From: a virus | Reading direction: 5' to 3' (one strand) | Virus record (IMG/VR): IMGVR_UViG_3300045988_041287 | Coordinates: 1-41,704 of that record | DNA length: 41,704 bases | Part shown: positions 1 to 41,704 of the stretch, in pieces | How the letters are laid out: each line of letters begins with the position of its first letter | How positions within the stretch are numbered: the stretch's first letter is position 1 | Made by a program: the position numbers and the translations under genes | The notes under the pieces: generated by a model | What the model was told of the DNA's origin: nothing | The model's database searches: none | What the model saw: the letters and a program-made list of their open reading frames with translations, nothing else

Positions 1-75
1 ATGTATGTCCGCCAATCCCGGCGTCTCGATCCAGCGCGGCAAAACCGCGCTCGACCCAACCGCCCGAAAAAAAAT
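1..75. repeat. Terminal direct repeat (left copy), identical to 41630-41704. Indicates a circular assembly overlap or terminal redundancy.
   Basis: Base-by-base comparison: atgtatgtccgccaatcccggcgtctcgatccagcgcggcaaaaccgcgctcgacccaaccgcccgaaaaaaaat is present at both ends. Confidence 0.95.
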
Positions 76-97
76 CTGATTTTTTGTAAATTACCCC

Positions 98-126
98 TTG
101 ACATTTGCGCTCATTGAGCGTATAAT
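98..126 (+). promoter_or_regulatory. Consensus sigma-A type promoter for the plus-strand early operon
   Basis: TTGACA (98-103), a 17-nt spacer, then TATAAT (121-126). It lies about 45 nt upstream of the AAGGAGG RBS and the ATG at 172. Confidence 0.8.
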
Positions 127-171
127 GTGACCATAAGATAAATCAAGCCGCAAGGCAAGGAGGATACAAAA

Positions 172-348
172 ATGAAAATGACCATCACGGAAGCCCTGGA
201 AAAGCTCGGCATAGAATTTATCGGCGACACCAACCGCATGACCACCGACGAGGTCCTCCGCTTTTTCGACCTCACCGTTGACGACGACGGCGAGATCATC
301 GACGCCGCCGGAAAAGCGACCGGCATCTGGTACGAGGAGATCATCTAA
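172..348 (+). CDS. Small acidic hypothetical protein, 58 aa (below the ORF-track cutoff)
   Basis: ATG at 172 preceded by AAGGAGG (157-163); TAA at 346-348. Translation: MKMTITEALEKLGIEFIGDTNRMTTDEVLRFFDLTVDDDGEIIDAAGKATGIWYEEII. Confidence 0.6.
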   Translation: MKMTITEALEKLGIEFIGDTNRMTTDEVLRFFDLTVDDDGEIIDAAGKATGIWYEEII

Positions 349-396
349 AGGTCTGAACACCGCCGCAGGAAGAATGCTAAATAAGGAGGAAACATC

Positions 397-795
397 ATGC
401 AAAATATCAATATCCGCTCCGCGTGGGGTGTGCCTACAAACGATGGTTTTAACCCAGAAACGTCCGGGAATGGCGGCGGCTACTGGCAGTATGCTGGCGG
501 CATCGTCGCCAAGGTCGGCGAGAAGTTCGTCGTCGCGGAGGTTGACGACGCCTCTTGCGGCGACTTTGGTAGCCGCATTTACGTATCCATCGCGTGCGAC
601 GGATACGAATGGCGCGTCAACATCGGCACGATGGACGACGCCTGTATCGACTCCCCGGAGGAGGCGGACGCAATTTTTGCGTCGATCTCCGGCGTCCTCG
701 GCATCGATGCCGATACTCTGATCGCTGCCGCTGAGGACGCGGCAAATCTCTGCGCGTGGCGCACGCAGCAAGACTATAAGGAGGATAAATCATGA
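397..795 (+). CDS. Hypothetical early protein, acidic, 132 aa
   Basis: ORF track; AAGGAGG RBS 6-12 nt upstream; 4-nt overlap with the next ORF. Confidence 0.7.
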   Translation: MQNINIRSAWGVPTNDGFNPETSGNGGGYWQYAGGIVAKVGEKFVVAEVDDASCGDFGSRIYVSIACDGYEWRVNIGTMDDACIDSPEEADAIFASISGVLGIDADTLIAAAEDAANLCAWRTQQDYKEDKS

Positions 796-1127
796 CTAAC
801 CAGCTCCGCCACACGCTCTACACGGAGGCTCACAACTACACCGACCCCGACGCCTACGTCTCCGCTCTCGCCCTGTCCTCTATGTGGGGCGACGCCGAGG
901 ACGCCGACTTCCCCGCCGATCGCATCGCGCTCCTGCGCCGCATCTGGGACGATGCGCACTGTACCGTCCGGGAGCTGATCGAGCGCTGCGGGCTGACGCA
1001 GAGCGCCTTTGCCCGACATTTTAACATCCCGCTCCGTACGGTACAGGGCTGGTGTCTTGGCGAGCGTGACTGCCCTCCGTACCTCATCACGATGGCAGCC
1101 GAGCTCCTGGCGCTGTATAGCGCATAA
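792..1127 (+). CDS. Helix-turn-helix DNA-binding protein (XRE/MqsA-like C-terminal HTH)
   Basis: The motif GLTQSAFARHFNIPLRTVQGWCLGERDCP is typical of an HTH followed by 'Q.WE.G.R.P'. The ORF is translationally coupled to 397-795. Confidence 0.6.
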   Translation: MTNQLRHTLYTEAHNYTDPDAYVSALALSSMWGDAEDADFPADRIALLRRIWDDAHCTVRELIERCGLTQSAFARHFNIPLRTVQGWCLGERDCPPYLITMAAELLALYSA

Positions 1128-1143
1128 TGCGTTCGGTTTTCCC

Positions 1144-1172
1144 GCCCGCCCCATAAGGGACGGGCATTTTTA
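1144..1172 (+). terminator. Rho-independent terminator at the convergence of the plus early operon and the minus operon
   Basis: Stem gcccgcccc/gggacgggc (8 of 9 pairs), loop ataa, followed by attttta. Confidence 0.55.
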
Positions 1173-1355
1173 TGCCCCTCGGAAGCTCTCCCGAACCTCC
1201 CCGCCGCGCGTCCGAAACGCCACAACGTGGAATCTCCCCGCCGGGTGCACATACGTCACCCGGCATCTTTGCGGCTTGTTTTTGATATTCGGCTTCTTGT
1301 CGTCGTCCTCGATCGTCTCCGGCGCTCTGCTCACGATGTCCCCGACCTTTAGCAT
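1170..1355 (-). CDS. Hypothetical protein, 61 aa
   Basis: ORF track; GGAGGAGG RBS 7 nt upstream of the ATG; last gene of the leftward operon. Confidence 0.6.
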   Translation of the reverse strand: MLKVGDIVSRAPETIEDDDKKPNIKNKPQRCRVTYVHPAGRFHVVAFRTRGGEVRESFRGA

Positions 1356-1582
1356 ACACGTTCCTCCTCCGTTTTCTCTAGTGCACCACTGTCTGGGATT
1401 TTCTCCCCACCGACCCGCTTGCCGCGCAGCCCGTTCGGCAGCTCCTCCAGCGGCAGCTCCCGCCTGCGCTTAAATTCTCCCGCATCAAAGCCGCAGCGCC
1501 TGCATTCCGCCCCGTTGGGCGATACATACGCGCACCCGCCCTTCAAGCAGTTCCCGCGTGCCCGCTCTTCAACGCCGCCCAT
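1349..1582 (-). CDS. Hypothetical Cys-containing protein, 77 aa
   Basis: ORF track; AGGAGGA RBS upstream of the ATG; overlaps both neighbours by a few nt. Confidence 0.55.
   Translation of the reverse strand: MGGVEERARGNCLKGGCAYVSPNGAECRRCGFDAGEFKRRRELPLEELPNGLRGKRVGGEKIPDSGALEKTEEERVC
1351..1386 (-). promoter_or_regulatory. Copy 1 of the GTGCACTAGAGA-N18-TAnnnT motif
   Basis: Minus strand: GTGCACTAGAGA (1386-1375), 18 nt, then TATGCT (1356-1351). The hexamer overlaps the ATG of the 61-aa ORF. Confidence 0.4.
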
Positions 1583-1753
1583 CTCGTCCTCCTGTAAAAG
1601 GCTTTTTCAGCCCCGGCTCTGTCCATTCCGCCGTTTCCTTCCCGATGTACTCGCAGTACGCACGTTCGATCTGTGCGCCCGCGCTGTCGCCCTTCGAAAT
1701 TTCGCCTGATACCCCTGATTGCCCGTGATCTTCCCGGCAATGTAAATCTTCAC
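1569..1753 (-). pseudogene. Remnant of a DUF4406-like (nucleoside 2-deoxyribosyltransferase-like) gene, with an internal deletion and frameshift
   Basis: GTG at 1753 (GTGA overlap with the upstream stop, GGAGGAG RBS) opens VKIYIAGKITGNQGYQAKF. This is the typical DUF4406 N-terminus. The typical C-terminus, SKGDSAGAQIERAYCEYIGKE, continues in a different frame down to 1569. The central ~60 aa are absent. Confidence 0.45.
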
Positions 1754-1986
1754 GGCTTCTCCTCCAAATCGCCCAGCAGTTCCACCGTGACCACAACGCG
1801 CCCCGCGAAGCCCCCGTTCCAGTCCTTTTTCGGCTTGAGCTTTTCCACTCCATCCATGACCGTTTTGATAATGTCCTGCGAGTTGCAGCTCAGGCAATCC
1901 TCCGTGTAAGACAGAACACCGCTCATTTCAATTCCCACGCGGGGACGCTGCTGATAAAGCCCCATCATATAGTTCTTTTCATCCAT
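1750..1986 (-). CDS. Hypothetical protein, 78 aa
   Basis: ORF-track frame trimmed to MDEKNY, which has a GGAGGT RBS and an ATGGATGA overlap with the upstream small ORF. Confidence 0.6.
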   Translation of the reverse strand: MDEKNYMMGLYQQRPRVGIEMSGVLSYTEDCLSCNSQDIIKTVMDGVEKLKPKKDWNGGFAGRVVVTVELLGDLEEKP

Positions 1987-2137
1987 CCCGTTTACCTCCG
2001 TCATTTTTACATGGAGAACAGAACAATCTATCAATCCAAGATACTTTCCCACTACCACCAGTAGCACATTTCTTCGACTGGCAAGTCTTATTCTCTTTGT
2101 TGTAGTAGATGCAGTCCTTACACGGATTTCGCATCAT
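1979..2137 (-). CDS. Cys-rich small protein, 52 aa, zinc-ribbon-like
   Basis: Manual translation: MMRNPCKDCIYYNKENKTCQSKKCATGGSGKVSWIDRLFCSPCKNDGGKRDG. GGAGGTGG RBS; CxxC...CxxC pattern. Confidence 0.5.
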   Translation of the reverse strand: MMRNPCKDCIYYNKENKTCQSKKCATGGSGKVSWIDRLFCSPCKNDGGKRDG

Positions 2138-2149
2138 TTCCACCTCCAT

Positions 2150-2251
2150 TCAACCCCAGCGGTCATCTTTCCAAATCAAAAACGCGCTATTCTGCTGGTA
2201 TACGGCATATACCCAGAAAACGCCGCCCGATAAAAGCTCAATCTCAAACAT
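2150..2251 (-). CDS. Possible 33-aa ORF (MFEIELLSGGVFWVYAVYQQNSAFLIWKDDRWG)
   Basis: ATGTTTGA start/stop overlap with the MazG-like frame. No other support. Confidence 0.3.
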   Translation of the reverse strand: MFEIELLSGGVFWVYAVYQQNSAFLIWKDDRWG

Positions 2252-2534
2252 TGTCGTTGCCTTCTATCCACCCGTCACGAATTAGCCGTTCATGCAGACG
2301 ATCAACCTTTTTCCACCGCCAAGTTGCAACATCGTAATGCAATTCGTAGAGTATCATCATCTGCTCCAGCATGATCTGCACGTCCGCGATCTCCTCGGCA
2401 ATGTGCTGCCTGTCTGTTTGACCTCTCAGGCTTTTGCACAGCTCTTTTTGCAGCTCGCTCAGTTCTTCGATTGCAATAACTCTTTGAATTTCACTGCCGC
2501 AGCACCCGCAGGAACGTTCTGTATTCCATCACAT
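2244..2534 (-). pseudogene. MazG-like all-alpha NTP pyrophosphohydrolase ORF with TGA as its second codon
   Basis: The frame encodes ...CCGSEIQRVIAIEELSELQKELCKSLRGQTDRQHIAEEIADVQIMLEQ... (EExxE and EExxD motifs). The only in-frame upstream start is ATG 2534-2532, and it is immediately followed by TGA 2531-2529. No ATG, GTG or TTG occurs between that stop and the first EExxE motif. Confidence 0.5.
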
Positions 2535-2871
2535 CCCGCAGCGGATCGTAGGATTCCTTGATCTCAATCAAATTGCGGATCTCCTCGGCATAAAACTGAT
2601 ACGCCGCCTGCCTTGCTACCATCTGCCACGCCGCTGCGCCCTTAAAATTTGCAAGCTCCTCTCTTGTGAAGTGGAAATCTTTGTTCAGCGTGACTACTTC
2701 TCTGTGCTCTGTGCTGCGCTTTGTGCAGCTCTCGCTCCACTGCTCCAGTATCTTCTCGTTTTCCTTTTCCGTTTCTCTCCTTCGCCTGTCGCAACCCCCG
2801 CGCACCACCCATCCGATCGCACCGCACACCAGCAGCGCGAGCACAAAAATCACCCAGTGCATCTCAATCAT
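2491..2871 (-). CDS. Membrane-anchored hypothetical protein, 126 aa
   Basis: Trimmed to MIEMHWVIFVLALLVCGAIGWVV (N-terminal TM helix). GGAGGG RBS; ATGA overlap with the upstream ORF. Confidence 0.6.
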   Translation of the reverse strand: MIEMHWVIFVLALLVCGAIGWVVRGGCDRRRRETEKENEKILEQWSESCTKRSTEHREVVTLNKDFHFTREELANFKGAAAWQMVARQAAYQFYAEEIRNLIEIKESYDPLRDVMEYRTFLRVLRQ

Positions 2872-3050
2872 TTTTCTGTCCCTCCATCCATCTTCGCACC
2901 GCAGTTGGGGCAGTAGAAAAAGCTGCTCCAGATCTCTGCTTTCAAAATCCGTTCCGCCTGCCACTTGGTCAGATGCGGCGCTCGCTTCTTCGGCGGCAGC
3001 TCGCCTTTTTCCGCCGCAATAGCGGTCGGGTTGTGCTTATGTTGCCCCAT
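2868..3050 (-). CDS. Small zinc-ribbon protein, 60 aa
   Basis: ORF track; C-terminal FYCPNCGAKM. Confidence 0.55.
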   Translation of the reverse strand: MGQHKHNPTAIAAEKGELPPKKRAPHLTKWQAERILKAEIWSSFFYCPNCGAKMDGGTEK

Positions 3051-3270
3051 CGGTTACCCTCCTGTTCCATGCCTCGGCGGCTTCATTTTTACAACTTTCA
3101 ATGTTTGCCAATGTGCGATTTTCTTCGCTAATGTTTGGACAATATCCAACAGTCCTTGCATCACAACTGCTGTCTTTGCACTGACACCAGATAGTAAAGC
3201 CACAGCTTTTATAAATTGCTTTAATTACCGCCTCCCCGCCGCAAAACGGGCACGGTTTCAGTTTAGCCAT
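3037..3270 (-). CDS. Lar-family restriction alleviation protein
   Basis: Trimmed to MAKLKPCPFCGGEAV...AAEAWNRR, which carries the hallmark LKPCPFCGG and C-terminal WNRR of the Lar family. 8-nt overlap with the upstream gene. Confidence 0.7.
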   Translation of the reverse strand: MAKLKPCPFCGGEAVIKAIYKSCGFTIWCQCKDSSCDARTVGYCPNISEENRTLANIESCKNEAAEAWNRRVTDGAT

Positions 3271-3454
3271 CCTTCTTGCCCTCCTCATCCTTGAGAATAA
3301 CCATCGCGGAGTAATAATGTTCGTAGTATCTGCCATCAATCGCAGAGCTGTACTTAATATCCACCACGCGTTCCGGCGGGAAGTTCTCGATAGCATCGTT
3401 GAGTAACGTCTCAAGGCTGCCGATGCGGTCGCTCTCGATCAGAATTACCTTCAC
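3263..3454 (-). CDS. Cse60-like small protein
   Basis: MKVILIESDRIGSLETLLNDAIENFPPERVVDIKYSSAI...YSAMVILKDE matches the Cse60 pattern (MKVK.FD....DLE..VN.FL......IDIKY). Confidence 0.5.
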   Translation of the reverse strand: MKVILIESDRIGSLETLLNDAIENFPPERVVDIKYSSAIDGRYYEHYYSAMVILKDEEGKKDG

Positions 3455-3837
3455 GCCTTGTCCTCCATTTCCTGCATCGCCCGCTCCGCCTCCTCGCGGG
3501 TCAAAAAAGTGTTCTTTCCGAATCTATCCGGGCTAAACGTGCGCTCATTCGTATGCCCTGTTTTATCGACGTGCTCACTGTGAACCCATGAGATACCTGT
3601 GTCATCCACCGCGTACCCTACCACCGCAAATTCTAGAATCTGCTTGGCGTTTACGAAATAAACCGTATCCCCCACCTTGCACGGCAGCGCCACCTCCGCA
3701 ACGTCGGCGGCAGGCATCCGCCTGATTTTATTTCTGATCTCGTCGAGCAGCCGGTTTTGCGCCGGGCTTCGGCACGCGCCGTATTGACTTGCCACTGCTT
3801 TCATCGCAGCGTCCCGCCGGATATATTCGTCAGCCAT
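3451..3837 (-). CDS. Hypothetical protein, paralogue A (shared C-terminal module LPCKV...FLTREEAERAM)
   Basis: ORF track; C-terminal similarity to the product of 3830-4285. Confidence 0.65.
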   Translation of the reverse strand: MADEYIRRDAAMKAVASQYGACRSPAQNRLLDEIRNKIRRMPAADVAEVALPCKVGDTVYFVNAKQILEFAVVGYAVDDTGISWVHSEHVDKTGHTNERTFSPDRFGKNTFLTREEAERAMQEMEDKA

Positions 3838-4285
3838 TCTTTCGCGCCTCCATCGCCCGCTCGGCTTCGGCGCGCGTCAAAAATATGCTCTTCCCGATTG
3901 CATTTTTATCGAAAGCCGGACCGCCTGCCGTCTCGTAGATGACCTCGCGCACCGTGTGCTCATACACCCTCGCCCCGTCAGTCTCGTACACCTTGCACGG
4001 CAGCACCACGACGCGCCCGTCCTTGTCAGCCGCAGCCAGCTCCCGCAGGCGCTCCGGCGTAGTCCCCAGCGCCTGCGCCGCCAGCTTGATAAGCGCGTCC
4101 GGCGTAAATGCGCTTTTGATTGCCTCCTGGCTAAATTCCTTGTCCTCGTAGGCAGCGAGCTTATCCACGGCTTCGCCCGCTCTCCAACAGGTAGTACATA
4201 TCCCATCACATTCATTTTCCCTCAGATCTACGCAAGCCAGATAAGCCTCGCCGTCATCAATTCGCCTTTTTGTCAGTCGTTCCAT
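3830..4285 (-). CDS. Hypothetical protein, paralogue B, with a Cys-rich N-terminus
   Basis: ORF track; the C-terminus VVLPCKVYE...IFLTRAEAERAM parallels 3451-3837. Confidence 0.65.
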   Translation of the reverse strand: MERLTKRRIDDGEAYLACVDLRENECDGICTTCWRAGEAVDKLAAYEDKEFSQEAIKSAFTPDALIKLAAQALGTTPERLRELAAADKDGRVVVLPCKVYETDGARVYEHTVREVIYETAGGPAFDKNAIGKSIFLTRAEAERAMEARKNG

Positions 4286-4719
4286 TACGTTTCTCCTTCC
4301 TCCGGCACTTCCGGCAGCGGCATCCAGTGCGTGACGGTGTGTCCTGTCGCGTCGTGCCAGAGCCTGTAATCATCATATCTTCGCCACGAATCCGCGCTTG
4401 TGCGGTAAGCCTCGCCGACAAACACGCCATCCGTAGCAATAACGCGCTTCCCTGCCGGAGCTCGTCTATCCGCGTCCTTCACGCTGATCCACTGCGCCAC
4501 CTTCTCCCGCAGCGCCGCATTCTCCGCCAGCAGCCGCTCGATCGCATCCGCTGCATCAGAAATGATCTGGTACACCTTGCACGATGCCCACCCGCGCAGC
4601 TTTTGCCATTCTTCAAGATTCTCCGTTGCCCAATACGAGCATTTCTTACATCCTTCGTTCACGGCTTTCTCATGTCTAGCCCGACACCGCAGCGCCTGCA
4701 CGATCTCTTTTTCCGTCAT
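4285..4719 (-). CDS. DUF551-domain protein
   Basis: Trimmed to MTEKEIVQAL. The C-terminus ...VTHWMPLPEVPE is the characteristic DUF551 ending. ATGA overlap with the methyltransferase stop. Confidence 0.65.
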   Translation of the reverse strand: MTEKEIVQALRCRARHEKAVNEGCKKCSYWATENLEEWQKLRGWASCKVYQIISDAADAIERLLAENAALREKVAQWISVKDADRRAPAGKRVIATDGVFVGEAYRTSADSWRRYDDYRLWHDATGHTVTHWMPLPEVPEEGET

Positions 4720-5454
4720 AACATTCCCTCCTCGCAAATATCCACGATATGCTCGCACAATGCCGCAGGAATTATGGAGCGTTCTTTGCTTCCGCGAAGC
4801 CCTTGCGTTCCTGTCTTTGCACCTCTTGGGGCTGGCGTATGACACGGGTCTCCATTGTGGCACATCGGCTTAAATTTAGGATCAGGATGATTCGTCCAGA
4901 TGTCCGTTGGTTTCATCCTGTTGTCTCCATACTGACAATAAGTCACCGTGTATCGTGGCAAATCTTGCATCCATTCCATTTTGCGCATCCCGCCACGCGG
5001 ATTTTCGATAAACCAGTATCTCGGATGCAGCTCACGAATAAGCCCTAAGACGTGCTGATCTACCTTGTCACAGAATTTCGCGTAGTCGCTTACCGCATCT
5101 AGATTCCCCGTTTTCGGATTCTTGCGCCTATGATGAGAAATGGCGGCGATAGAAAACGTTGTACAATCTGGGCTTGCCCAGATGACATCCGGCTTCCCGA
5201 ATCGTTTTAAAACATCCTCCGCTGTTACCGTCAATACATCGGCATACAAATCTATTCTCCGTCCCGTCCGTGAATAAATTCCTCCGCCGCTGCGTCAAAG
5301 ATATTACCCAGCCGCCACGCATAAATGCAGTTTCCTCAAAGTGCTTATCCCACTCCACAGAGAACACTTTGTGCCCTCGCGCAGCAAATGCCTTGCCGAT
5401 GCTTCTTGTTCCCGCAAACAGTTCGAGTACCTTGAGTTTTTTCTCGTTGTTCAC
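4716..5454 (-). pseudogene. DNA (cytosine-5) methyltransferase disrupted by a 76-bp insertion
   Basis: The N-terminal fragment (5454-5332) carries motif I (KVLELFAGTRSIG). The C-terminal fragment (5255-4716) carries ASPDCTTFS (the PC motif) and ENPRG. The two frames differ by 1 nt. Deleting 5256-5331 gives the continuous sequence ...VEWDKHFEEIDLYADVLTVTAEDV... Confidence 0.8.
5256..5331. repeat. 76-bp insert inside the methyltransferase, copied from the giant gene (21400-21459 joined to 21556-21571)
   Basis: Manual alignment shows 1 mismatch (5287 c vs 21431 t) and a gc microhomology at the internal junction. A 96-bp stretch of the giant gene is absent from this copy. Confidence 0.85.
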
Positions 5455-5654
5455 CGTATCCTCCCCACCTTCCGCATTTTATCCCGCTCCCGCACCCGCC
5501 GCTCCTGCGCGGGCGTCGTGCCGGTGTTGTTGCTGTGCACCGCATTGCGCGCATATTCCGCCATCTTGTGCTCCGCATATTCCAGATACGGCTCGCAGTC
5601 AAGCCGGCACGTCTCGCTGCGCCTCTCGCAGCTCTTCTTGCATGGGCATTTCAT
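5451..5654 (-). CDS. Cys-rich small protein, 67 aa
   Basis: ORF track; MKCPCKKSCERRSETCRLDCEPY; ATGA overlap with the methyltransferase start. Confidence 0.55.
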   Translation of the reverse strand: MKCPCKKSCERRSETCRLDCEPYLEYAEHKMAEYARNAVHSNNTGTTPAQERRVRERDKMRKVGRIR

Positions 5655-5799
5655 CGTCCGTTCCCTCCCAATATAGGCACACCGGGATCGTCTCCCGGTG
5701 CTCCGCCGCCAGATGGCAGAATGCCCCGACGCCGCGCTGCGCGCAGTTGCGGCAGCCGTCGTACCCGTCCGGCACGAGCCACCCGTTCACGTCCTTCAT
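5599..5799 (-). CDS. Hypothetical Cys-containing protein, 66 aa
   Basis: Frame trimmed to MKDVNGW, which has an ATGA overlap with the upstream ORF. Its 3' end overlaps the next gene by 56 nt. Confidence 0.45.
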   Translation of the reverse strand: MKDVNGWLVPDGYDGCRNCAQRGVGAFCHLAAEHRETIPVCLYWEGTDDEMPMQEELREAQRDVPA

Positions 5800-6023
5800 G
5801 CTCTGCACCGCCTCGCCGTGCACGCGCCGTAGCTGTCTACCCTGCTCCAGTCCAGTCCCCAGTGCTCCAGCGCCGCCTTGATCGCCGCCTGCGGGCTGGG
5901 GGCGCGAACGCGCAGGACTGTGTTCCCGCGCGTCACCCACCATTCTGCCTTGCCCTTGTACTCCCCGGCGCAGACGGTGTCCTCCTGCCGGCGGAAGCCG
6001 CCCGCCTGATACCCGGCGATCAT
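5796..6023 (-). CDS. Hypothetical protein, 75 aa
   Basis: Frame trimmed to MIAGYQ, which has an ATGA overlap with the stop of the 3D-domain gene. Confidence 0.5.
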   Translation of the reverse strand: MIAGYQAGGFRRQEDTVCAGEYKGKAEWWVTRGNTVLRVRAPSPQAAIKAALEHWGLDWSRVDSYGACTARRCRA

Positions 6024-6655
6024 TCCGTCCACCATACCGTCGCCTCCCGTGCGCCCAGCTTCAGCGCCTCCTCGTGCGTCGCAACAGCCAGATCGACGTG
6101 CCCGCCCAGCACGGCGCTGCCCGTATCCTCCGCGATGTAGCTGTGCAGGATACCGTCCCCATAATCGACATAAATCTCCGCCCCCAGCGGGATCACGTTG
6201 GGATCGACCGCCGCCGACCGCCCCGCCGTCACGTCCGTGCCCGTCGCGGTCTTTCCCGTCCCGCCGCCGCAGATGTGCGGACGCTTTTCGCAGCAGTAAT
6301 ATGTAATGGTGCAGTTATGGACCACGCCGTCAAACCCGCGCAGCTCGTCCAGATCGTTCCGCCCCGTCTCCGGGTATTCATTTTCCAGCGGCACGATCTC
6401 ATACTCCAGCTCCCGCGCGCCCCCGCCCGCTCCTGTAGGGGCGGACGCCTCTGTCCGCCCGTCGGCTTCCCCCTTGAGGGGGAAGCTGTCAGCCGTAGGC
6501 TGACTGATGAGGGTGGCGTTCTCGTCTCTGAGCTGCTTCGCGTTTGCCGCCGCCCGCGCCGTCCCCAGCACCAGCAGCTCAAGCACCGCCAGCGCCAGCA
6601 CCACCATCAGCACAAACTCGCCGACCACCCGCAGCGTCTCACGTCTCTTTCCCAT
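6020..6655 (-). CDS. 3D-domain (MltA/RlpA-like double-psi barrel) cell-wall protein with an N-terminal TM anchor
   Basis: Trimmed to MGKRRETLRVVGEFVLMVVLALAVLELLVLG. The C-terminus CTITYYC...ICGGGTGKTATGTDV..GRSAAVDPNVIPLGAEIYV...AEDTGSAV.GGHVDL is a typical 3D domain. Confidence 0.75.
   Translation of the reverse strand: MGKRRETLRVVGEFVLMVVLALAVLELLVLGTARAAANAKQLRDENATLISQPTADSFPLKGEADGRTEASAPTGAGGGARELEYEIVPLENEYPETGRNDLDELRGFDGVVHNCTITYYCCEKRPHICGGGTGKTATGTDVTAGRSAAVDPNVIPLGAEIYVDYGDGILHSYIAEDTGSAVLGGHVDLAVATHEEALKLGAREATVWWTE
6455..6545. repeat. GC-rich hairpin element (A-type) in frame inside the 3D-domain gene
   Basis: ggcttcccccttgagggggaagc and gtcagccgtaggctgac hairpins, followed by ctgatgaggg ... 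cgcgtttg. About 94% identical to 7809-7899. Translated as ANAKQLRDENATLISQPTADSFPLKGEADGR. Confidence 0.85.
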
Positions 6656-7745: not shown

Positions 7746-8180
7746 TCACCAATTCACACACAATTCAAAGTCCGTGACCTCGAACCCATCCGCACCATCC
7801 CCGGCTTCCCGCCCATAGGCTTCCCCCTTGAGGGGGAAGCTGTCAGCCGCAGGCTGACTGATGAGGGTGGAGTTCTCGTCTCCGAGCTGCCCCGCGTTTC
7901 CGCCCTCGTCCAGATAGTTCCTCCCGAACTCCCGCACAAAGTCCGCAGTGCTCCATCCCATCCTCTCCATCGCCATCCGCTGCCCGTATTCGTGCAGCGC
8001 CTGCGCCGTTTCGCGGCAGCGGTGTGCCGCCCGCTTACCGCTGATGTGGCAGCTCCCGTGGCAAAGATCCACCACCAGCCCGAGCTTTTCGCTCTTCCGC
8101 CGGTTCGCCCCGCCAAAAATGTGGTGACGATCCAACGGCTCATCCGTCCCGTTCTTCCCGCACAGCCAGCACGTCCGCAT
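7746..8180 (-). CDS. HNH/zinc-finger nuclease-like protein
   Basis: CWLCG...LDRHHIFGGANRRKSEKLGLVVDLCHGSCH follows the pattern CxxC..HH..N..CxxxCH. Confidence 0.55.
   Translation of the reverse strand: MRTCWLCGKNGTDEPLDRHHIFGGANRRKSEKLGLVVDLCHGSCHISGKRAAHRCRETAQALHEYGQRMAMERMGWSTADFVREFGRNYLDEGGNAGQLGDENSTLISQPAADSFPLKGEAYGREAGDGADGFEVTDFELCVNW
7809..7899. repeat. GC-rich hairpin element (A-type) in frame inside the HNH-like gene
   Basis: Near-identical to 6455-6545. Translated as GNAGQLGDENSTLISQPAADSFPLKGEAYGR. Confidence 0.85.
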
Positions 8181-9000: not shown

Positions 9001-10584
9001 ATGGATTTTTTGACAGATTTCCTTCTGTATTTTTTTATCTCGTTTTGTTGCTACTTACTCGGTGCATTGTCACGTGAGCTTGGCACATTATGCCGCCGCG
9101 CATTCTTTGTTTCTCTGTATGACTGTTTATCCATCGCCTTTCTATTTCTCGGCTTTATCGTCTCTGTTCCCGTGTATCTCCTAACTTCCTGTGAATGCCG
9201 ACGCGCTTCTGCCCAGGCTGAAAAGCGTTCGCAAGCGGAGGTGCATCGTTTGCAGGCAGAAGCGCAGCACACCAAAGACCGCTTGGATGAATATGCCCGT
9301 ACCGAAAAATCCACCCGCGACAAAATTTTCACTGAAGCCTACAAAATCGGCTATGATGATGGGCATAGCAGTGTCGAAGAATATGAAGTAAAAGGTGCAT
9401 ATCGCAACGGTTACCAAGACGGTCACTGTGAATGCTTGTACCGCTGCCGAATGCAGGCGCAGCACTACATTGCGCACTTCCAGTCTACGCCCGCCTTCGA
9501 TGCCGTAAAATCCTACGACTTTTCTGCAAACCCCCGGCTCTATTCCGCCGCCTCTGAACCGATCCGCTACGCAGCCCCGTTTTCTCTTGCTGTCAAAACC
9601 TATGGGGAAGGCGGCATCGTCTACGACACCACGCTGTATTCCTGCACCTGTCCCGATTATCAGTTCCGAAAAGTCCCTTGCAAGCATATGTTTTACCTTG
9701 CTCTTGATTTTGGTCTGCTGGACACATTGGATCATGACGATCTGCGCGACGCGCTCGTAAAAATGCAGACGCAATTTTCCAAACTTCGCAAGCAGCAGGA
9801 GAAAACGACCCGCTCCATCCAGCGTCTCCATGATCTTCAGCAGAACGTCGCCAGCATCTCCGCCCCTGGCAGCTCTGCCATCGAAGTTCCCCGCAACACT
9901 GAGCTGCCTGTGCTCACCGCCAGCCAAGACCGAAAGCGCTGCAAAATGCTGTCCGATTATGAGTATAGTTCCTTGCCTCCTGCCGCACGCTATCAGCTCG
10001 CATTGGAATACGAGCTTGAGCGCAAGAAGAATCGCCCCGAAATTGGCAAAGCATTTGAGCGCTACATCGGATATTGCTGCGAGCAGCGGCAGTATGCCGT
10101 CGTATATAACGGTGCAACGGAGAAAAAGCACGACCTCGGACGCGATCTGATTGCCATCAGCCCCGACCGAAAGACCGTCTATGTGATCCAGTGCAAATAC
10201 TACGCAGCCGATAAAGAAGTCCACGAGAACGCCGTTATGCAGCTTTTCGGCAGCGTTTCCATGTTTGCCGCCACATACCCCGGCGTCTCCGTTTTTGGTG
10301 TCCTGGTCTCCTCCTGCCCGCTCTCAGTAGATGCAAAAAACTGCATTGGTCACTTCAACGCCCTTCGGTATTTTGAGAACATCCACGCCGACCTGCGTCA
10401 CTACCCCGTTGTGAAGTGTGCTACCTCTTCCTCTGGTGCAAAACATTTCTATTTGCCGTTTGATTCCTGCTATGATACCGTCGTCGCCGATCACTACGAA
10501 TTGACCGTTTCCGCCGCAATTTCAAAAGGCTTCATTCGTGCATTGAAGCCCGCAAAACCTGCTACGTCGAATCGGCATATTTAA
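9001..10584 (+). CDS. Membrane-anchored SWIM zinc-finger / Mrr-type (PD-(D/E)xK) nuclease-domain protein
   Basis: Two N-terminal TM helices and coiled coils. SWIM motif CTCPDYQFRKVPCKH at 9643-9687. Mrr_cat-like core GKAFERYIGY...GRDLIAISPDRKTVYVIQCKYY, with QCK at 10189-10197. Lower GC than the flanking sequence. Confidence 0.7.
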   Translation: MDFLTDFLLYFFISFCCYLLGALSRELGTLCRRAFFVSLYDCLSIAFLFLGFIVSVPVYLLTSCECRRASAQAEKRSQAEVHRLQAEAQHTKDRLDEYARTEKSTRDKIFTEAYKIGYDDGHSSVEEYEVKGAYRNGYQDGHCECLYRCRMQAQHYIAHFQSTPAFDAVKSYDFSANPRLYSAASEPIRYAAPFSLAVKTYGEGGIVYDTTLYSCTCPDYQFRKVPCKHMFYLALDFGLLDTLDHDDLRDALVKMQTQFSKLRKQQEKTTRSIQRLHDLQQNVASISAPGSSAIEVPRNTELPVLTASQDRKRCKMLSDYEYSSLPPAARYQLALEYELERKKNRPEIGKAFERYIGYCCEQRQYAVVYNGATEKKHDLGRDLIAISPDRKTVYVIQCKYYAADKEVHENAVMQLFGSVSMFAATYPGVSVFGVLVSSCPLSVDAKNCIGHFNALRYFENIHADLRHYPVVKCATSSSGAKHFYLPFDSCYDTVVADHYELTVSAAISKGFIRALKPAKPATSNRHI

Positions 10585-11916: not shown

Positions 11917-12960
11917 ATGAAAGTCCCCGAACCCCGTAAGCTCCCCAGCGGTACATACTTCATCCAGCTCCGCCTCGGCGGGCAGAGCGTCCCCATCTCC
12001 GCCCCCACCCGCCGTGAGTGCATCCAGCAGGCGCAGCTCAAAAAAGCAGAGCACCGCGCCGGTCTCCGCACCACCGCGCCTAAAACTGACCAGACGCTTC
12101 GTCAGATCATGCAGGCATACATTGATGCGCTTCCGCCCGATACATCCCCTTCGACGGTGCGCGGCTACTACATCATTATGGACAATCGTTTCCCATCTGT
12201 AATCGATACGCCCGTCTCACGCATTGACTGGTCGTCTGTGATGGAGGCGCTGACCGCCAAATATTCGCACAAAACCCTCAAAAACACATGGGGTTTTCTC
12301 ACCTCCTGCCTTCGTTCCGCCGGTGTCCCTACCCCAGATGCCAACGTCCCCAAGCAGAAAAAGCAATCCCCTATGCCGCACTTTCTTGAACCCGAACAGA
12401 TTTTGCAAGTGCTTCCGCTCCTGCGCGGAAAAAAATACGAGATTCCCGCGCTGCTTGCCCTGCACTCTCTCCGTCGGTCCGAGATCATGGCGCTCGACTA
12501 TTCCGACATTGATCTCAAAAAGAATACGATAACCGTCCACGGCGCGCTCGTACCTGATAAAAACAATGACCTCGTATACCGGGACGAAAACAAGACGCTG
12601 TCCAGCCAGCGTGTCATTCCCATTATGATCCCACGTCTCGTGGAGGCGATCCGCGAGACCGGGCAAACCTCCGGGCGCATTTGGTCTAAAACCCCCCACG
12701 CTCTGTATCATACTATGGAAAGAGTTTGTGCAGAGCTGGGCATTCCAAACGTAGGCGTCCATGGCTTGCGTCACAGCTTTGCATCCCTTGCCTATCATCT
12801 TCATTTTTCCGAATTGGAGACAATGGAGATCGGCGGGTGGTCGGATCATAACACCATGCGCAAAATCTACACGCACCTTGCGCAGGCGGACCGCCTGAAA
12901 GCGCAAAACCGCATGGCGCAGTTTTATGAAAATGCTAACGAAAATGCTAACGAAAAATAA
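11917..12960 (+). CDS. int: Tyrosine site-specific integrase
   Basis: HGLRHSFASLAY...GWSDHNTMRKIYTHL provides the R..HxxR..Y catalytic signature. Adjacent to attP. Confidence 0.9.
   Translation: MKVPEPRKLPSGTYFIQLRLGGQSVPISAPTRRECIQQAQLKKAEHRAGLRTTAPKTDQTLRQIMQAYIDALPPDTSPSTVRGYYIIMDNRFPSVIDTPVSRIDWSSVMEALTAKYSHKTLKNTWGFLTSCLRSAGVPTPDANVPKQKKQSPMPHFLEPEQILQVLPLLRGKKYEIPALLALHSLRRSEIMALDYSDIDLKKNTITVHGALVPDKNNDLVYRDENKTLSSQRVIPIMIPRLVEAIRETGQTSGRIWSKTPHALYHTMERVCAELGIPNVGVHGLRHSFASLAYHLHFSELETMEIGGWSDHNTMRKIYTHLAQADRLKAQNRMAQFYENANENANEK
12929..12952 (+). repeat. Two tandem copies of AAAATGCTAACG (putative arm-type integrase sites) overlapping the int 3' end
   Basis: Exact 12-mers at 12929-12940 and 12941-12952. 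They encode the ENANENANEK tail of Int. Confidence 0.6.
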
Positions 12961-12984
12961 ATCCCCTGTATTTTCAACGTGTTT

Positions 12985-13025
12985 ACGGCTGCTCAATCAG
13001 GGTTCGAATCCCTCATCCCCTGCCA
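12985..13025 (+). other. Putative attP core: the 3' end of a tRNA gene (T-arm, acceptor strand and CCA), not a complete tRNA
   Basis: cagGGTTCGAATCCctcatcccctgCCA ends at 13025. No complementary 5' acceptor strand or anticodon arm lies upstream. Confidence 0.6.
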
Positions 13026-13032
13026 TAGCACG

Positions 13033-13066
13033 AAAAACCAGCAATCCGTTGCGATTGCTGGTTTTT
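13033..13066. terminator. Bidirectional hairpin terminator next to the tRNA-like core
   Basis: 14-bp stem aaaaaccagcaatc/gattgctggttttt, loop cgttgc. Confidence 0.7.
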
Positions 13067-13139
13067 CCTTATATGTCAATGTTTTCCCAGCTTTTTAGCA
13101 TTATGTTTTCTCATAAAATACTCTGCATTCGCACCCGCA

Positions 13140-13183
13140 AAAATGCTAACGCAGAATACAAAATGCTAACGAAAATGCTAACG
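13140..13183 (+). repeat. Three further copies of AAAATGCTAACG (putative arm-type sites) on the other side of the core
   Basis: Exact 12-mers at 13140-13151, 13160-13171 and 13172-13183. A partial inverted copy (ttttagcatt) is at 13094-13103. Confidence 0.6.
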
Positions 13184-20190: not shown

Positions 20191-20226
20191 ATTGTATCAG
20201 CCTCCGGCGGCAAATCTCTAGTGCAC
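20191..20226 (-). promoter_or_regulatory. Copy 2 of the GTGCACTAGAGA-N18-TAnnnT motif (candidate internal late promoter)
   Basis: Minus strand: GTGCACTAGAGA (20226-20215), 18 nt, then TACAAT (20196-20191). Located in the gap between the giant ORF stop and the next RBS. Confidence 0.5.
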
Positions 20227-23200
20227 TACTGTGCCCATTCGTCGATTTTTTCCAGAGCCTTTTTGCGATCCTTTCCCAGCATTGCATACACCGTCGCCAG
20301 ATGTGCCCGCAGATCAATGCGCTCCCGCTCGCTCGCCTCCCGGAAGTCCTGCCGGCACAGTGCCGTGATCGCCTGGCTGATCTCGCCGTTTGTGTAGCCT
20401 GCCTTCTTCAGCTCCCGCACCACCTGTGTCACATTCTTCCCGGTCATCGCCGCCTCGCGCAGGCTCTTACCCTGCTCCGTCCACGGCTCAAAGCCCGTCA
20501 GCTTGTAGCTTTCTCCGGCAATGGCGTCCTTCTGCTCCGGCGTAAAGTCGTAGCTGTCCAATAAATCGTACAGCTCCGACTTTTTGCTCCCGCTCACCGT
20601 GTTCCCCTCTGCGTCCTTCCAGCCGTCCGCGCCCGGCAGCGCCTGCCGGTACTCCAGATACGCGCCCACGTCCGCGTTCTCGTTCAGAAGCCTTTGGAGC
20701 ATTGCCTGCTCCTTTTCGCTCGCGATCACATTGTAGTAATACATCGCCTTTGCCTCGTCTGCGATGTCGTATGCGTTCAGCGCCGCCAGCTTCGCTTCCC
20801 TCTCGCTTGCGCCCTCCGGCACGTCCACGTCCTTCATCGCCTGGATGAGCTTCCACGCCTCGCGCTGCTTCACGTCTGCCGCGCTCATCGCGAGGTACGC
20901 GTTCGTCTCCTTCATATTCAGATTTGAAAAATCGTTGTCCACCCACTTCTTTGCCTCGCTCGTCGCGGTCTTCCCGGCGATGCTTACCTTGATCGTGTTG
21001 AGGATCTTGTCTCCCGTCGTTTCGTTGAACACCGGGTACTGCATGAGCAGCTCGCCGTCCTTGTTTTTCTTAAAGCTCCCGCCCTGCACCACGGCGTAAA
21101 TGCCCTGCGCCGTTTTCTTTACCGCACCGCCGCCAAGCGGAGCAAACAGATACGTTACGGGCTTTGCTACCTCTGCCCCGATCTTCTCCCACCGAACGTC
21201 GTTTGCCATGTCCTTGTCCGTTGCAGCGTTGATGATGGTCAGAACATTCGGGATAGCCTGCGTCACGGGCAGCCGTCCGCCGTCCAGATCGTCTGTAACG
21301 AGTGCCAGCACCTGCGTCCCCGGCACATCGTCCAGTATCGCCTCGCCCAGCCCCGTCAGCGCAGCACTCAGCCGCTTCTTGTTGGTCGTCTCGATCCACT
21401 CTCCGTCCCGTCCGTGAATAAATTCCTCCGTCGCTGCGTCAAAGATATTACCCAGCCGCTTCCCGGTCGTATCACCCACAAAGTCGTTTGCCATGTTGAT
21501 CGGGTCTGGCAGCACACGCCCGCCGAATATGCTCTCGAACGCTTCATTGAACAGCCACGCATAAATGCAGTATTTCAGCAGCCTCCATGCGTATTCCGCC
21601 ACAAATCTGCTATTGCTCCAGTCTGGATGATCCTTGCTCATGTAATAGGCTGTGTCCTTGAACACGTTGCGCGGCAGGTTGTTCACCTCAAGCTGGAACT
21701 GCGTCAGCATCTTTGTAAACGGGTTCTTTGATTCGTAGCGCGTCGGCATTTCGCCCTTGCTGCGTGCCGCCATCACGTCCGCCGCGTACTGGTCCGCCTC
21801 GTCCATCGCATCGACCTCGTTCAGCCCCCGCCGCAGGTTGTCGTTATAGCGCACGCGCACGACTGCCTCAGCCGTGAAGTTGTCCACAACGTTCATTACC
21901 GCCCCGGCTGCGTCGCTGATTTTCCCCATGCGTCCATTTACAAGCGGATCGCTGCCCCGTCGGTTCGTCAGGAACGCGCTGCGCTCCACGATCCCGTCCC
22001 GGTCTCTCACGTTTCGGACTGTCTGCCACATCGCCGCGAACGTCTGCAAGCCGCCGTGCTGCATTGCTGTCTGCACCAGCGGTGCAAAGTTCGTCGCCGC
22101 TGACCTCAGGTTGAGCGCGACCATATTCGCGCCGACCCGACCGATGGTTTTCTGCATCACATTGTAGATTTTTCGTCCGTGGTCTCGCTCCATGTCCCGG
22201 TCTGTCCGGCTCTTCTTGCCCGCCAAAAGGTTTGTGTACTCCTCCAGTTCGTTCACATACCCGCTCAGTTGGAACTTTGCCTTCTCCAGAATTTCCTCGA
22301 CCTTCTTGTCCCGCTCATACTGGCTCAACTCCGTGTCGGCTCGTATTGCATCGACCTGCTGCTGAACGCCCTCCGATGACGCCATATAGCGTATCTCCGA
22401 TGCCAGCGCCCGCAGTCTCTGGATATTGTCCGTCTGATAGATCACGCTCGCCGCGCCCTCTATGTATCGGTCAAAGCCTTCCACCGCGTCATACGCTGTG
22501 TTGAAGCCCAGGCGTTCCTCTGCGTTGCCGAAATACTTGATGCCCGGTCGGAACATATACGTCCTGCCCGCGATCGTAGTCGGCAGCTCCGTCACATCCC
22601 CGTTCACACCCAAAGCGTTTGCCACCATTGCCAGAATGCCGTCCGTCTGCCCCGGCTGGAAGTGCGGGAAGTATCCGCTTCTTCTCGGCACTGGCTCGTA
22701 GCCGTTTTCAATGCGCTTTCGGTTCATGGCTTCCAGCGTTTCGTCGTAGATTTTTCGGAACTCCGCCACGGCGCTTTCGATCTTCGTCTTGTCAAGGCTC
22801 GGACTTGTTTTCCACAGCTCGCGTACCACGGCTTCCCACTCGGCAAGCGTCTTTCCATCCCGCTTTGCATCCATCGGCTTCTTCTTGAGCATTTCGATGT
22901 TGTTCATCGCCTCGCCGTAGAGCTGCACCGCGTGCGCCTCGCTCACAAGGTCGCCCGTCCGCTTCTCGCGGCTCATATTCATTGCCTTCACGCGCCCGCG
23001 CATCTCGTTCTTAAACCGCGTCGCCTTCGCCTCGTCCCGGCGTACCTGTGCAAAGTAGTCGTTGTTGATACGCTCCGCATCCTCCCGTGCGAACACATCC
23101 CGCGTGTTGCGCGTCATCGTTTCCCGCTGCAGGAAGAAGCCCTTCTTGTCCTTCGTGCTCTCGATATTCGTCAGGTGCTCACGGGCATACTCGCGGTTCT

Positions 23201-36027: not shown

Positions 36028-36174
36028 GCTATCACCGCACCCACGGCTTCCCCCTTGAGGGGGAAGCTGTCCGCGCAGCGCCCGCACCATCTCTTGCCTT
36101 CCCCTTGGGGGGAAGGTGGCGCGAAGCGCCGGATGAGGGGAAGGGTTGCTGTCTCTGCCCTGCCCCGCGTTTGC
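36028..36174. repeat. Composite intergenic hairpin element (an A-type unit nested in a B-type unit) abutting the prp stop codon
   Basis: 36028-36041 plus 36089-36174 parallel 38432-38527. The extra 47 bp at 36042-36088 carries ggcttcccccttgagggggaagc and ends in a second copy of CCGCACC; the two CCGCACC copies are at 36035-36041 and 36082-36088. Confidence 0.8.
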
Positions 36175-36485
36175 TACTCCCTCGCAAACCGCACATTCTG
36201 TGGATACTCATGCGCCACCATCTGCATCCCCAGCAGTGCCGTGTCCCACATCGCCCGCACCACCCGCTCATGCTTCGGCGCGCACGCAATGGTGATGTCT
36301 CCGGGCTGCATATCCACCACCGGCTCTGCCCGCAGCAGCCCCTCGCTTTCCGCTCTCAGGATCATCCCACCCAGCGCGTAGGAGAGGATCGTCACCGCCG
36401 CGCAGACAATGTCCTGCCCCGCCGGAGCGTATCCCGCGTGCCCTGTGATCCGCAGGCTGTAGCCTTTACACTGGATGCTTATCAT
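36174..36485 (-). CDS. prp: Prp-family (DUF464, ribosomal-processing) cysteine protease homologue
   Basis: MISIQCKGYSLRITGHAGYAPAGQDIVCAAVTIL matches the hallmark GHA......G.DIVCAAVS. Confidence 0.75.
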   Translation of the reverse strand: MISIQCKGYSLRITGHAGYAPAGQDIVCAAVTILSYALGGMILRAESEGLLRAEPVVDMQPGDITIACAPKHERVVRAMWDTALLGMQMVAHEYPQNVRFARE

Positions 36486-38431: not shown

Positions 38432-38527
38432 CTATCGCCGCACCCCTTGCCTTCCCCTCGGGGGGAAGGTGGCGCGAAGCGCCGGATGAGGGGAAGCGTC
38501 GTTGTTTCTGATCTGTTCCGCGTTTGC
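38432..38527. repeat. Intergenic hairpin element (B-type) abutting the terL stop codon
   Basis: ccttcccctcggggggaagg and ggcgcgaagcgcc hairpins, then ggatgagggg ... ccgcgtttgc, ending at the TAG of terL. Confidence 0.85.
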
Positions 38528-41629: not shown

Positions 41630-41704
41630 ATGTATGTCCGCCAATCCCGGCGTCTCGATCCAGCGCGGCAAAACCGCGCTCGACCCAACCGCCCGAAAAA
41701 AAAT
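41630..41704. repeat. Terminal direct repeat (right copy), identical to 1-75
   Basis: Exact 75-nt identity with the start of the window. Confidence 0.95.

Follow-up and report, generated by a model that had tools for sequence, protein, structure and literature searches.

A composite 76-nt copy of a giant structural-module gene interrupts a predicted orphan C5-methyltransferase gene in a human gut phage

Background

Mosaicism in phage genomes is usually ascribed to homologous or illegitimate recombination between genomes. To our knowledge, bacteria and phages offer few cleanly and fully resolved examples of short templated insertions that involve serial template jumps, and a full-text literature search found none in phage genomes. 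Here we describe a candidate case in the IMG/VR virus record IMGVR_UViG_3300045988_041287 (positions 1 to 41,704; this whole stretch of 41,704 nt is referred to as the window). A gene for a predicted orphan C5 DNA-methyltransferase is interrupted by 76 nt that match two segments of a giant gene located elsewhere in the same genome. The insert is very probably a real, one-off and non-programmed templated insertion that knocked the gene out.

Several described processes resemble this case. The filler insertions of alternative end joining (Pol theta in eukaryotes, microhomology-mediated or alternative end joining in bacteria) are short ectopic copies placed at a break on 1-2 nt of microhomology. 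Multi-round priming gives composite inserts, the synthesis is error-prone and no target-site duplication is made. Microhomology-mediated break-induced replication and fork stalling and template switching (MMBIR/FoSTeS) involve serial switches on microhomologies of 1-5 nt between distant templates in the same orientation, and usually leave duplications, deletions or larger rearrangements. DNA or cDNA captured at double-strand breaks (yeast mitochondrial or Ty cDNA, LINE-1-linked capture, group II intron-like reverse transcriptases in bacteria) forms an ectopic patch with little or no homology. Phase-variable methyltransferases ('phasevarions'), which switch through simple-sequence repeats, are turned OFF by an early frameshift.

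Composition of the insert

The following features, all on the minus strand, make up the insert and its donor:

5256-5331, minus strand: the 76-nt insert, which separates codon 41 (GAA) of the methyltransferase gene from codon 42 (ATA); a copy of two giant-gene segments
21400-21459, minus strand: donor segment A, 60 nt, giant-gene codons ~2352-2372; includes the single mismatch at 21431
21556-21571, minus strand: donor segment B, 16 nt, giant-gene codons ~2315-2320
21460-21555, minus strand: the skipped segment, 96 nt or 32 codons, encoding the conserved WLFNEAFESIFGGRVLPDPINMANDFVGDTTGK
20226-28514, minus strand: the giant gene (2762 aa) of the structural module, the copy template; MuF_C domain at residues 1285-1383

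In a script comparison, 75 of the 76 bases of the insert matched donor segments A and B joined to each other. The sole mismatch (C at 5287, T at 21431) reads as an A-to-G difference on the sense strand. Both copied pieces retain donor order and orientation. The insert and its donor lie in direct (same) orientation, 16,144 nt apart in the 41.6-kb genome, and the insert has the sense orientation of the donor transcript. The two share exact stretches of up to 31 nt, and the chance expectation of shared 31-mers in the window is about 4e-10. Their flanks do not match each other, and no other long interspersed repeat involves the methyltransferase gene. The junctions show microhomologies of 1 nt (A), 2 nt (GC, at the internal junction) and 1 nt (A), with no long homology, and the insert holds one junction and one base that occur nowhere else in the genome. 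An earlier note on this DNA, made from the sequence alone, had described the same two segments, the mismatch and the GC microhomology, and the comparison agreed with it in every detail. Its suggestion of templated insertion from the giant gene gains support from a composite copy placed so precisely in the methyltransferase gene.

The insert is neither a mobile element, nor an intron, nor a programmed switch. No terminal inverted repeats, target-site duplication or further copies of the insert were found in the window and the empty site is exact, so that a transposable element, a miniature inverted-repeat transposable element or an insertion sequence was rejected. A self-splicing intron or another structured RNA was rejected as well, since Rfam (gathering thresholds) and tRNA scans of the window gave no match and 76 nt is far below the size of a group I or group II intron. 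Genes for a reverse transcriptase (RT), a recombinase or end-joining proteins were not detected in the window. The lack of an RT speaks against a diversity-generating retroelement, as do the change of 1 out of 18 adenines and the fact that the copy disrupts the gene and diversifies no C-terminal domain. For programmed bypass or frameshifting of the T4 gene 60 type, the GAA landing site is followed by TAG, the GAG landing site is in the wrong frame and no recognised slippery motif was identified. A phase-variable repeat switch was also discarded, as the window reads GCTGCGCGAGGGCAC at the site where some relatives carry G9-G10 or A8.

The interrupted methyltransferase gene

4716-5454, minus strand: interrupted gene of the putative orphan C5 DNA-methyltransferase, a small early gene, with a GTG start at 5454 after a GGAGG ribosome-binding site
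5332-5454 and 4716-5255, minus strand: codons 1-41, and codons 42-220 with the stop, respectively
5128-5454, minus strand: N-terminal frame, 108 aa (41 native, 25 insert-encoded and 42 out-of-frame residues)
4716-5249, minus strand: C-terminal frame, 177 aa (residues 44-220) with a TTG start, called as a gene in ENA assemblies

The N-terminal frame, carrying LFAGTRS, and the C-terminal frame, carrying SPDCTTFS and ENPRG, are offset by 1 nt. Because 76 equals 75 plus 1, the native protein ends after residue 41. Exact deletion of the 76 nt yields ...VEWDKHFEEIDLYADVLTVTAEDV... and a single open reading frame (ORF) of 220 aa, colinear with all relatives; the earlier note had held that this removal restores the ORF. 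The insertion point is in the loop that follows strand beta-2, past motif II and ahead of motifs III-IV.

Motif I of the repaired protein (LFAGTRS, residues 12-18) keeps the F-x-G but not the second glycine of FxGxG, and is invariant in 27 family members. Motif IV is SPDCTTFS with the catalytic Cys72, and motif VI is ENPRG (residues 125-129). In the family alignment (A4), P70, D71, F75, S76 and E125-G129 are invariant and Cys72 is nearly so (at least 90%). The residues of motifs IV and VI align to the PCQPFS region of 3LX6. Pfam family PF00145 matched the repaired protein with 19.4 bits (E = 7.8e-4), under the 22-bit gathering score, and a precomputed PF00145 match is present on many homologues of 80-85% identity. 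The NCBIfam scan of the repaired protein and the Pfam search of the truncated 108-aa N-terminal frame gave no match. Sequence-profile searches of PDB with the repaired protein returned weak matches only, too weak to classify the enzyme, and fold comparison was therefore used. An AlphaFold model built with 27 homologues (predicted local distance difference test, pLDDT, 76; predicted template modelling score, pTM, 0.79) was compared with PDB using Foldseek, which matched DNMT3A/B, M.HaeIII and M.HhaI with probability 1.00. The top 50 PDB fold matches were all C5 DNA or Dnmt2 methyltransferases (E ~1e-6, query TM ~0.5). On this model, the repaired product is a predicted compact orphan C5-methyltransferase-like enzyme.

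The +1 frameshift cuts between the S-adenosylmethionine-binding motifs I-II and the catalytic motif IV, and we therefore infer that the phage most likely no longer methylates its own DNA. The end of the insert supplies a GGAG (5257-5260) 7 nt upstream of the in-frame TTG, and the fragment of residues 44-220 could be translated from that TTG. At 4716-4719 the methyltransferase stop overlaps the start of a downstream DUF551 gene (ATGA). This overlap suggests translational coupling of the two genes, in which case the frameshift may also reduce expression of DUF551.

Authenticity of the insert

The window is a circularly permuted assembly of a phage of ~41.6 kb. Its exact 75-nt terminal direct repeat (1-75 = 41630-41704) is the overlap of a circular assembly, and assemblies of 41,684 bp elsewhere correspond to a 55-nt overlap. 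The same phage was recovered from public assemblies by exact-protein look-ups, and the insert was present at 100% identity in four further ENA assemblies:

ERZ28622033 (SAMN03283273): 41,684 bp, 100% identical through the insert
ERZ28620637 (SAMN03283282): 41,684 bp, 100% identical through the insert, with an identical donor region
ERZ1749022: 41,684 bp, coverage 4.7, 100% identical through the insert
ERZ1749288: 5.3-kb contig, 100% identical through the insert

Logan k=31 unitigs of SRR1761700 enter the insert from both sides (window 1-5285 and 5257-6493), and a unitig of SRR1761709 enters it from the left side. These unitigs end at the single 31-mer common to the insert and the giant gene, which is the kind of break that a real repeat gives in a k=31 graph. 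The evidence thus spans at least two BioSamples, several runs and three assembly methods (55-nt overlap, 75-nt overlap and k=31 unitigs). Since the longest exact stretch shared by the two loci is 31 nt, graphs with overlaps of 55 or 75 nt cannot join them. Elsewhere in the genome, the window differs from two of the samples by 1 and 9 substitutions over ~9.4 kb, and these samples are therefore not mere copies of each other. The k-mer coverage, taken from contig names, is 2.5-4.7. The insert is real and an assembly artefact is very unlikely; the concern of the earlier note about a chimera is answered by independent assemblies and unitigs that cover both junctions. The insert-bearing lineage has been sampled in several human gut metagenomes.

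Empty site, age and uniqueness

Across the site, the repaired protein gave gap-free alignments with homologues in two human faecal phage records, MT839422 (81%) and MT835521 (71%), and it aligned in one unbroken segment to 80 IMG/VR loci. None of the intact orthologues contains the inserted segment. A protein search found an intact allele of 96% identity (protein P0014, locus L089, Logan SRR29133684). At the DNA level, this locus and the window differ in length by a single clean gap of 76 columns, which separates codons 41 and 42. The insertion therefore neither removed nor added any base of the target, and it left no target-site duplication. Motifs II and IV are the same distance apart in 79 out of 79 relatives.

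Codon differences between the window and the intact allele comprise 15 synonymous and 8 non-synonymous changes, of which 6 and 1, respectively, are assignable to the window lineage. As the gene shows no further decay, the insertion event is recent. It is also irreversible, because no repeats flank it (1 nt of flanking identity) and it has no precise excision route. A population-level on/off polymorphism through this insert, which the earlier note had considered, found no support: the insert is in every assembly, and the 90%-identity protein cluster in which an intact copy of this exact allele would fall has the 96% relative P0014 as its one member.

Interrupted copies were sought with a gapped pattern validated on 145 loci and the window. 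Between motifs I and IV, no inserts of +31 to +90 nt were found in IMG/VR relatives and none of +61 to +90 nt in the JGI metagenomes. The scan of IMG/VR recovered only variants of +1 to +6 nt. The insertion thus appears to be a one-off event at a site that is no hotspot.

Some relatives carry other lesions of the same gene. IMG/VR loci L261, L275 (G10), L265, L271 (G9), L263 (A8), L266, L267 and L256 have +1/+2 nt frameshifts early in the methyltransferase, several of them where the codons for KAFE-ARG-H contain long homopolymer tracts. From their sequence, these look like simple-sequence-repeat phase variation of an orphan C5-methylase, or homopolymer sequencing error. They suggest that switching the methylase off may be common in the family, by a mechanism other than the present insert. 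The methyltransferase is an accessory gene. In an uncultured Firmicutes metagenome-assembled genome (MAG), CALACZ01 (SRR1747065_bin.135), a phage that matches much of the window at 87-90% identity has a different, repeat-rich gene in the methyltransferase slot. This slot gene, on CALACZ010000212.1 / CALACZ010000025.1 (L253-L255), consists of tandem AAQRKAWYEANREK-type repeats, and both contigs break there.

The skipped segment and the donor allele

The 96 nt skipped between the two donor segments encode GRRxALDPxxxxNDxVGDxTG, the best-conserved motif of the region. This segment is kept in 11 out of 11 database homologues covering it (35-53% identity), and it is kept gap-free in all 80 IMG/VR homologues of the giant gene, which were found partly through a pattern lying outside the skipped segment. 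A viable pre-existing short allele is therefore unlikely. The junction expected of a 96-nt deletion was absent from IMG/VR, and neither the JGI metagenomes nor the GTDB genomes contained the 28-nt core of the insert. No close relatives of the giant gene came up when IMG/VR was scanned with a peptide pattern, and the closest relative of the donor region among 5.8 billion protein clusters had 53% identity. With the segment in all homologues and the junction in no collection searched, a natural short allele of the giant gene was judged an unlikely source. A skip mediated by a hairpin was rejected too, as the 96 nt and their flanks fold more weakly than shuffled controls (z +1.8 for DNA, +1.5 for RNA).

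The C-terminal ~600 residues of the giant protein (~2150-2762; window 20226-22064) match metagenomic predicted proteins of ~545-631 aa (P0001-P0006). Judging from these matches, the giant gene may be a fusion of modules that are separate elsewhere, or the ~545-631-aa predictions may be fragments.

Proposed mechanism and alternative explanations

We read the insert as a mutational scar, probably a templated ('filler') insertion left by homology-free repair of a break or collapsed fork inside the methyltransferase gene. A break or a collapsed replication fork would have arisen in the gene, and a free 3' end would have started synthesis on the giant gene, 16 kb distant; the simplest template would be a second genome copy among those being replicated. 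After the first stretch had been copied, the end would have dissociated and primed again on a GC dinucleotide 96 nt further along the same template. The second stretch would then have been copied and joined to the other side of the break, with 1 nt shared at each outer junction. A low-fidelity polymerase can explain the single A-to-G difference. The enzymes involved and this order of steps are what we infer from the finished structure. A donor distance of 16 kb is plausible given a pool of replicating phage genomes, and synthesis that resumes exactly at the next base is easier to reconcile with a patched clean break than with long-range break-induced replication. A second template jump is preferred because all homologues that cover the skipped segment keep it and because capture of a short allele needs a fragment that spans the deletion by coincidence. 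The preserved order and orientation of the two pieces is also what a forward jump along a single template would give. On the narrower version, in which the donor was the phage's own allele and a second template jump took place, we are evenly divided. Our confidence in the filler-repair reading is a compromise between that balance and the much firmer general claim of a templated insertion.

Several points weigh against this reading. In the best-studied filler insertions, those of the Pol theta type, the donor is found no more than tens to hundreds of bases from the break, compared with 16 kb here, and a resumption at precisely the following base of the first template is not what MMBIR/FoSTeS models predict. 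The length of the skip is divisible by three (prior 1/3) and one base of the copy differs from the donor, and each of these mildly favours a donor of a different allele. All assemblies come from one study and have low coverage.

A different-allele donor could have acted in a single step, if a 76-bp fragment was captured from a pre-existing giant-gene variant that lacked the 96 bp and had a sense-strand G at the mismatch. The variant could have belonged to a co-infecting relative, as the earlier note had proposed, to a defective deletion mutant in the burst or to a decayed prophage remnant in the host, and the fragment could have been ligated or copied into the break. Such a capture would leave just two junctions to explain. 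It would also account for a deletion of 32 codons in frame, and for 1 mismatch in 76 nt where the sampled strains differ by 0.1% or less. However, no motif block of this region is better conserved than the deleted segment, which is kept in every homologue covering it, the searches for the junction and the 28-nt core came back empty, and the protein clusters hold no close relative of the region. Moreover, the fragment must by coincidence span the only known indel of the variant. We consider such a capture unlikely, and a natural donor allele without the 32 codons did not find support. Capture of a cDNA is less likely still and seems improbable to us. Here giant-gene mRNA would be reverse-transcribed by a host RT (of the group II intron, G2L or defence type) with one template jump, and the cDNA would patch a double-strand break. 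For RTs of the group II intron type, template switching is most efficient on one base pair, and these enzymes can perform microhomology-mediated end joining in bacteria (bioRxiv 10.1101/2022.03.14.484287); the 1-2 nt junctions of the insert fit such switching. The sense orientation to the donor transcript and the single A-to-G change, as an RT error, would be compatible with it. On the other hand, sense orientation has a prior of 50%, the window encodes no RT, the adenine changes (1/18) are not DGR-like, and the sequence gives no distinction between an RNA and a DNA template and holds no feature that would require RNA.

The remaining alternatives concern whether the insert exists and whether it matters. 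A chimeric join in the library or an error in the de Bruijn graph is the least probable of all the explanations considered. It would draw on the low coverage, the single study behind all data and the closeness of 76 nt to the 75-nt terminal overlap of the window assembly. Yet the same sequence came from all three assembly methods and from different BioSamples and runs, and k=55 or k=75 graphs cannot link loci that share 31 nt at most. The Logan unitigs also break where expected if both contexts are real, and an artefact would have to supply a junction and a variant base that the rest of the genome does not contain. It is highly improbable, too, that the interrupted gene still functions, be it as a two-piece enzyme, by +1 frameshifting or by ribosomal bypass of the insert. 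Split C5-methyltransferases exist (M.AquI), the GGAG and TTG described above are suitably placed before an ORF that gene callers report, and both frames are open over the last third of the insert (~40 nt). However, the split lies between motifs II and III-IV and not in the variable region of known split enzymes, and 67 residues of the N-terminal piece would be foreign. There is no matching pair of take-off and landing codons, no slippery motif was identified, and the arrangement is unique among hundreds of relatives. We know of no precedent for a functional two-piece C5-methyltransferase split at this point.

The filler-repair reading can be taken further, to Pol theta-like multi-step templated end joining acting on phage DNA in a gut Firmicute. 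The cut could perhaps have been a clean one by a host CRISPR or restriction nuclease, and the product could perhaps have been selected through an advantage of methylase loss, for which a SWIM-Mrr-type nuclease gene in the window would be one possible reason. We offer this extension tentatively and think it doubtful. If it were true, phage genomes could be mined for scars that reveal bacterial end joining, a process otherwise known almost only from laboratory assays.

Genome context and neighbouring features

The window encodes a P22-type portal, a large terminase, a major head protein, an internal virion protein, tail fibres, an integrase and a replication initiator. No close relative of the window was found among GenBank phages.

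The nuclease gene mentioned above (9001-10584, plus strand; 527 aa, a SWIM zinc finger and an Mrr_cat nuclease domain of the PD-(D/E)xK type) belongs to the lysogeny module, where a repressor-like gene lies on one side of it and the integrase gene on the other. PADLOC and NCBIfam gave no match for it. It is absent within 10 kb on either side of the methylase in all 79 relatives with an intact methylase. A conflict between this nuclease and an active methylase would be pure speculation: the absence is compatible with it but uninformative, because the SWIM-Mrr_cat gene is simply rare.

Six two-hairpin repeats of ~95-100 nt occur in the same orientation (6455-6545, 7809-7899, 24143-24240, 26333-26430, 36083-36181 and 38436-38534). 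On the plus strand they read hairpin 1 (GCYTCCCC..GGGGARGC), hairpin 2, TGAGGG, a spacer of ~25 nt and CGCGTTTGC, and the hairpin arms vary between copies yet stay complementary. Of the six, two fall between genes (terminase/portal and Prp/next gene), two are in small-ORF tails and two run in frame within the 2762-aa giant ORF, where they encode ...QNGGSSDP(L/F)RRSAPPPLGHQGEA... The repeat has no Rfam match, and many copies are also present in the related phage of MAG CALACZ01.

Just downstream of the integrase gene, the 12-mer AAAATGCTAACG forms clusters at 12917-12964 (three partly overlapping units) and 13140-13183 (two units). The clusters flank 13021-13078, which holds a 26-nt inverted repeat. 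From their position, they could be arm-type or attP sites of the integrase, or part of a terminator region. Two adjacent small genes on the minus strand (3451-3837 and 3830-4285) are paralogous, both matching phrog_38832, and share 51 nt of 80% identity (3471-3521 and 3847-3897). By this similarity, the pair is a probable tandem gene duplication.

Comparison with known systems

The insert shares with filler insertions of alternative end joining its short ectopic source, its junctions of 1-2 nt, its composite structure with an apparent copying error and the absence of a target-site duplication. It differs in that the donor lies 16 kb off or on another genome copy and that no target bases were lost, and in its setting, a temperate phage of a gut Firmicute. 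With MMBIR/FoSTeS it has in common the serial switches on short microhomologies and the distant template in the same orientation. In place of the usual rearrangements, however, the two tracts are 60 and 16 nt long and were rejoined exactly at the next base. Captured DNA or cDNA likewise forms ectopic patches with little or no homology, whereas the present fragment is very short and internally rearranged and bears no sign of an RNA intermediate.

The outcome resembles that of the phase-variable methyltransferases, with an early frameshift leaving the gene OFF, and some relatives of this gene do carry G9-G10 or A8 tracts. Unlike those systems, the site has no repeat tract and a 76-nt insert cannot slip back, which makes it a knock-out and no switch. 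The case thus shows a route besides repeat-tract slippage by which orphan methylases of phages can be switched off. It is a natural instance of a known mutational process knocking out an accessory phage methylase, of modest weight as a single event. With an exact empty-site reference, a known donor and confirmation in multiple samples, it could serve as a type example for mining such scars.

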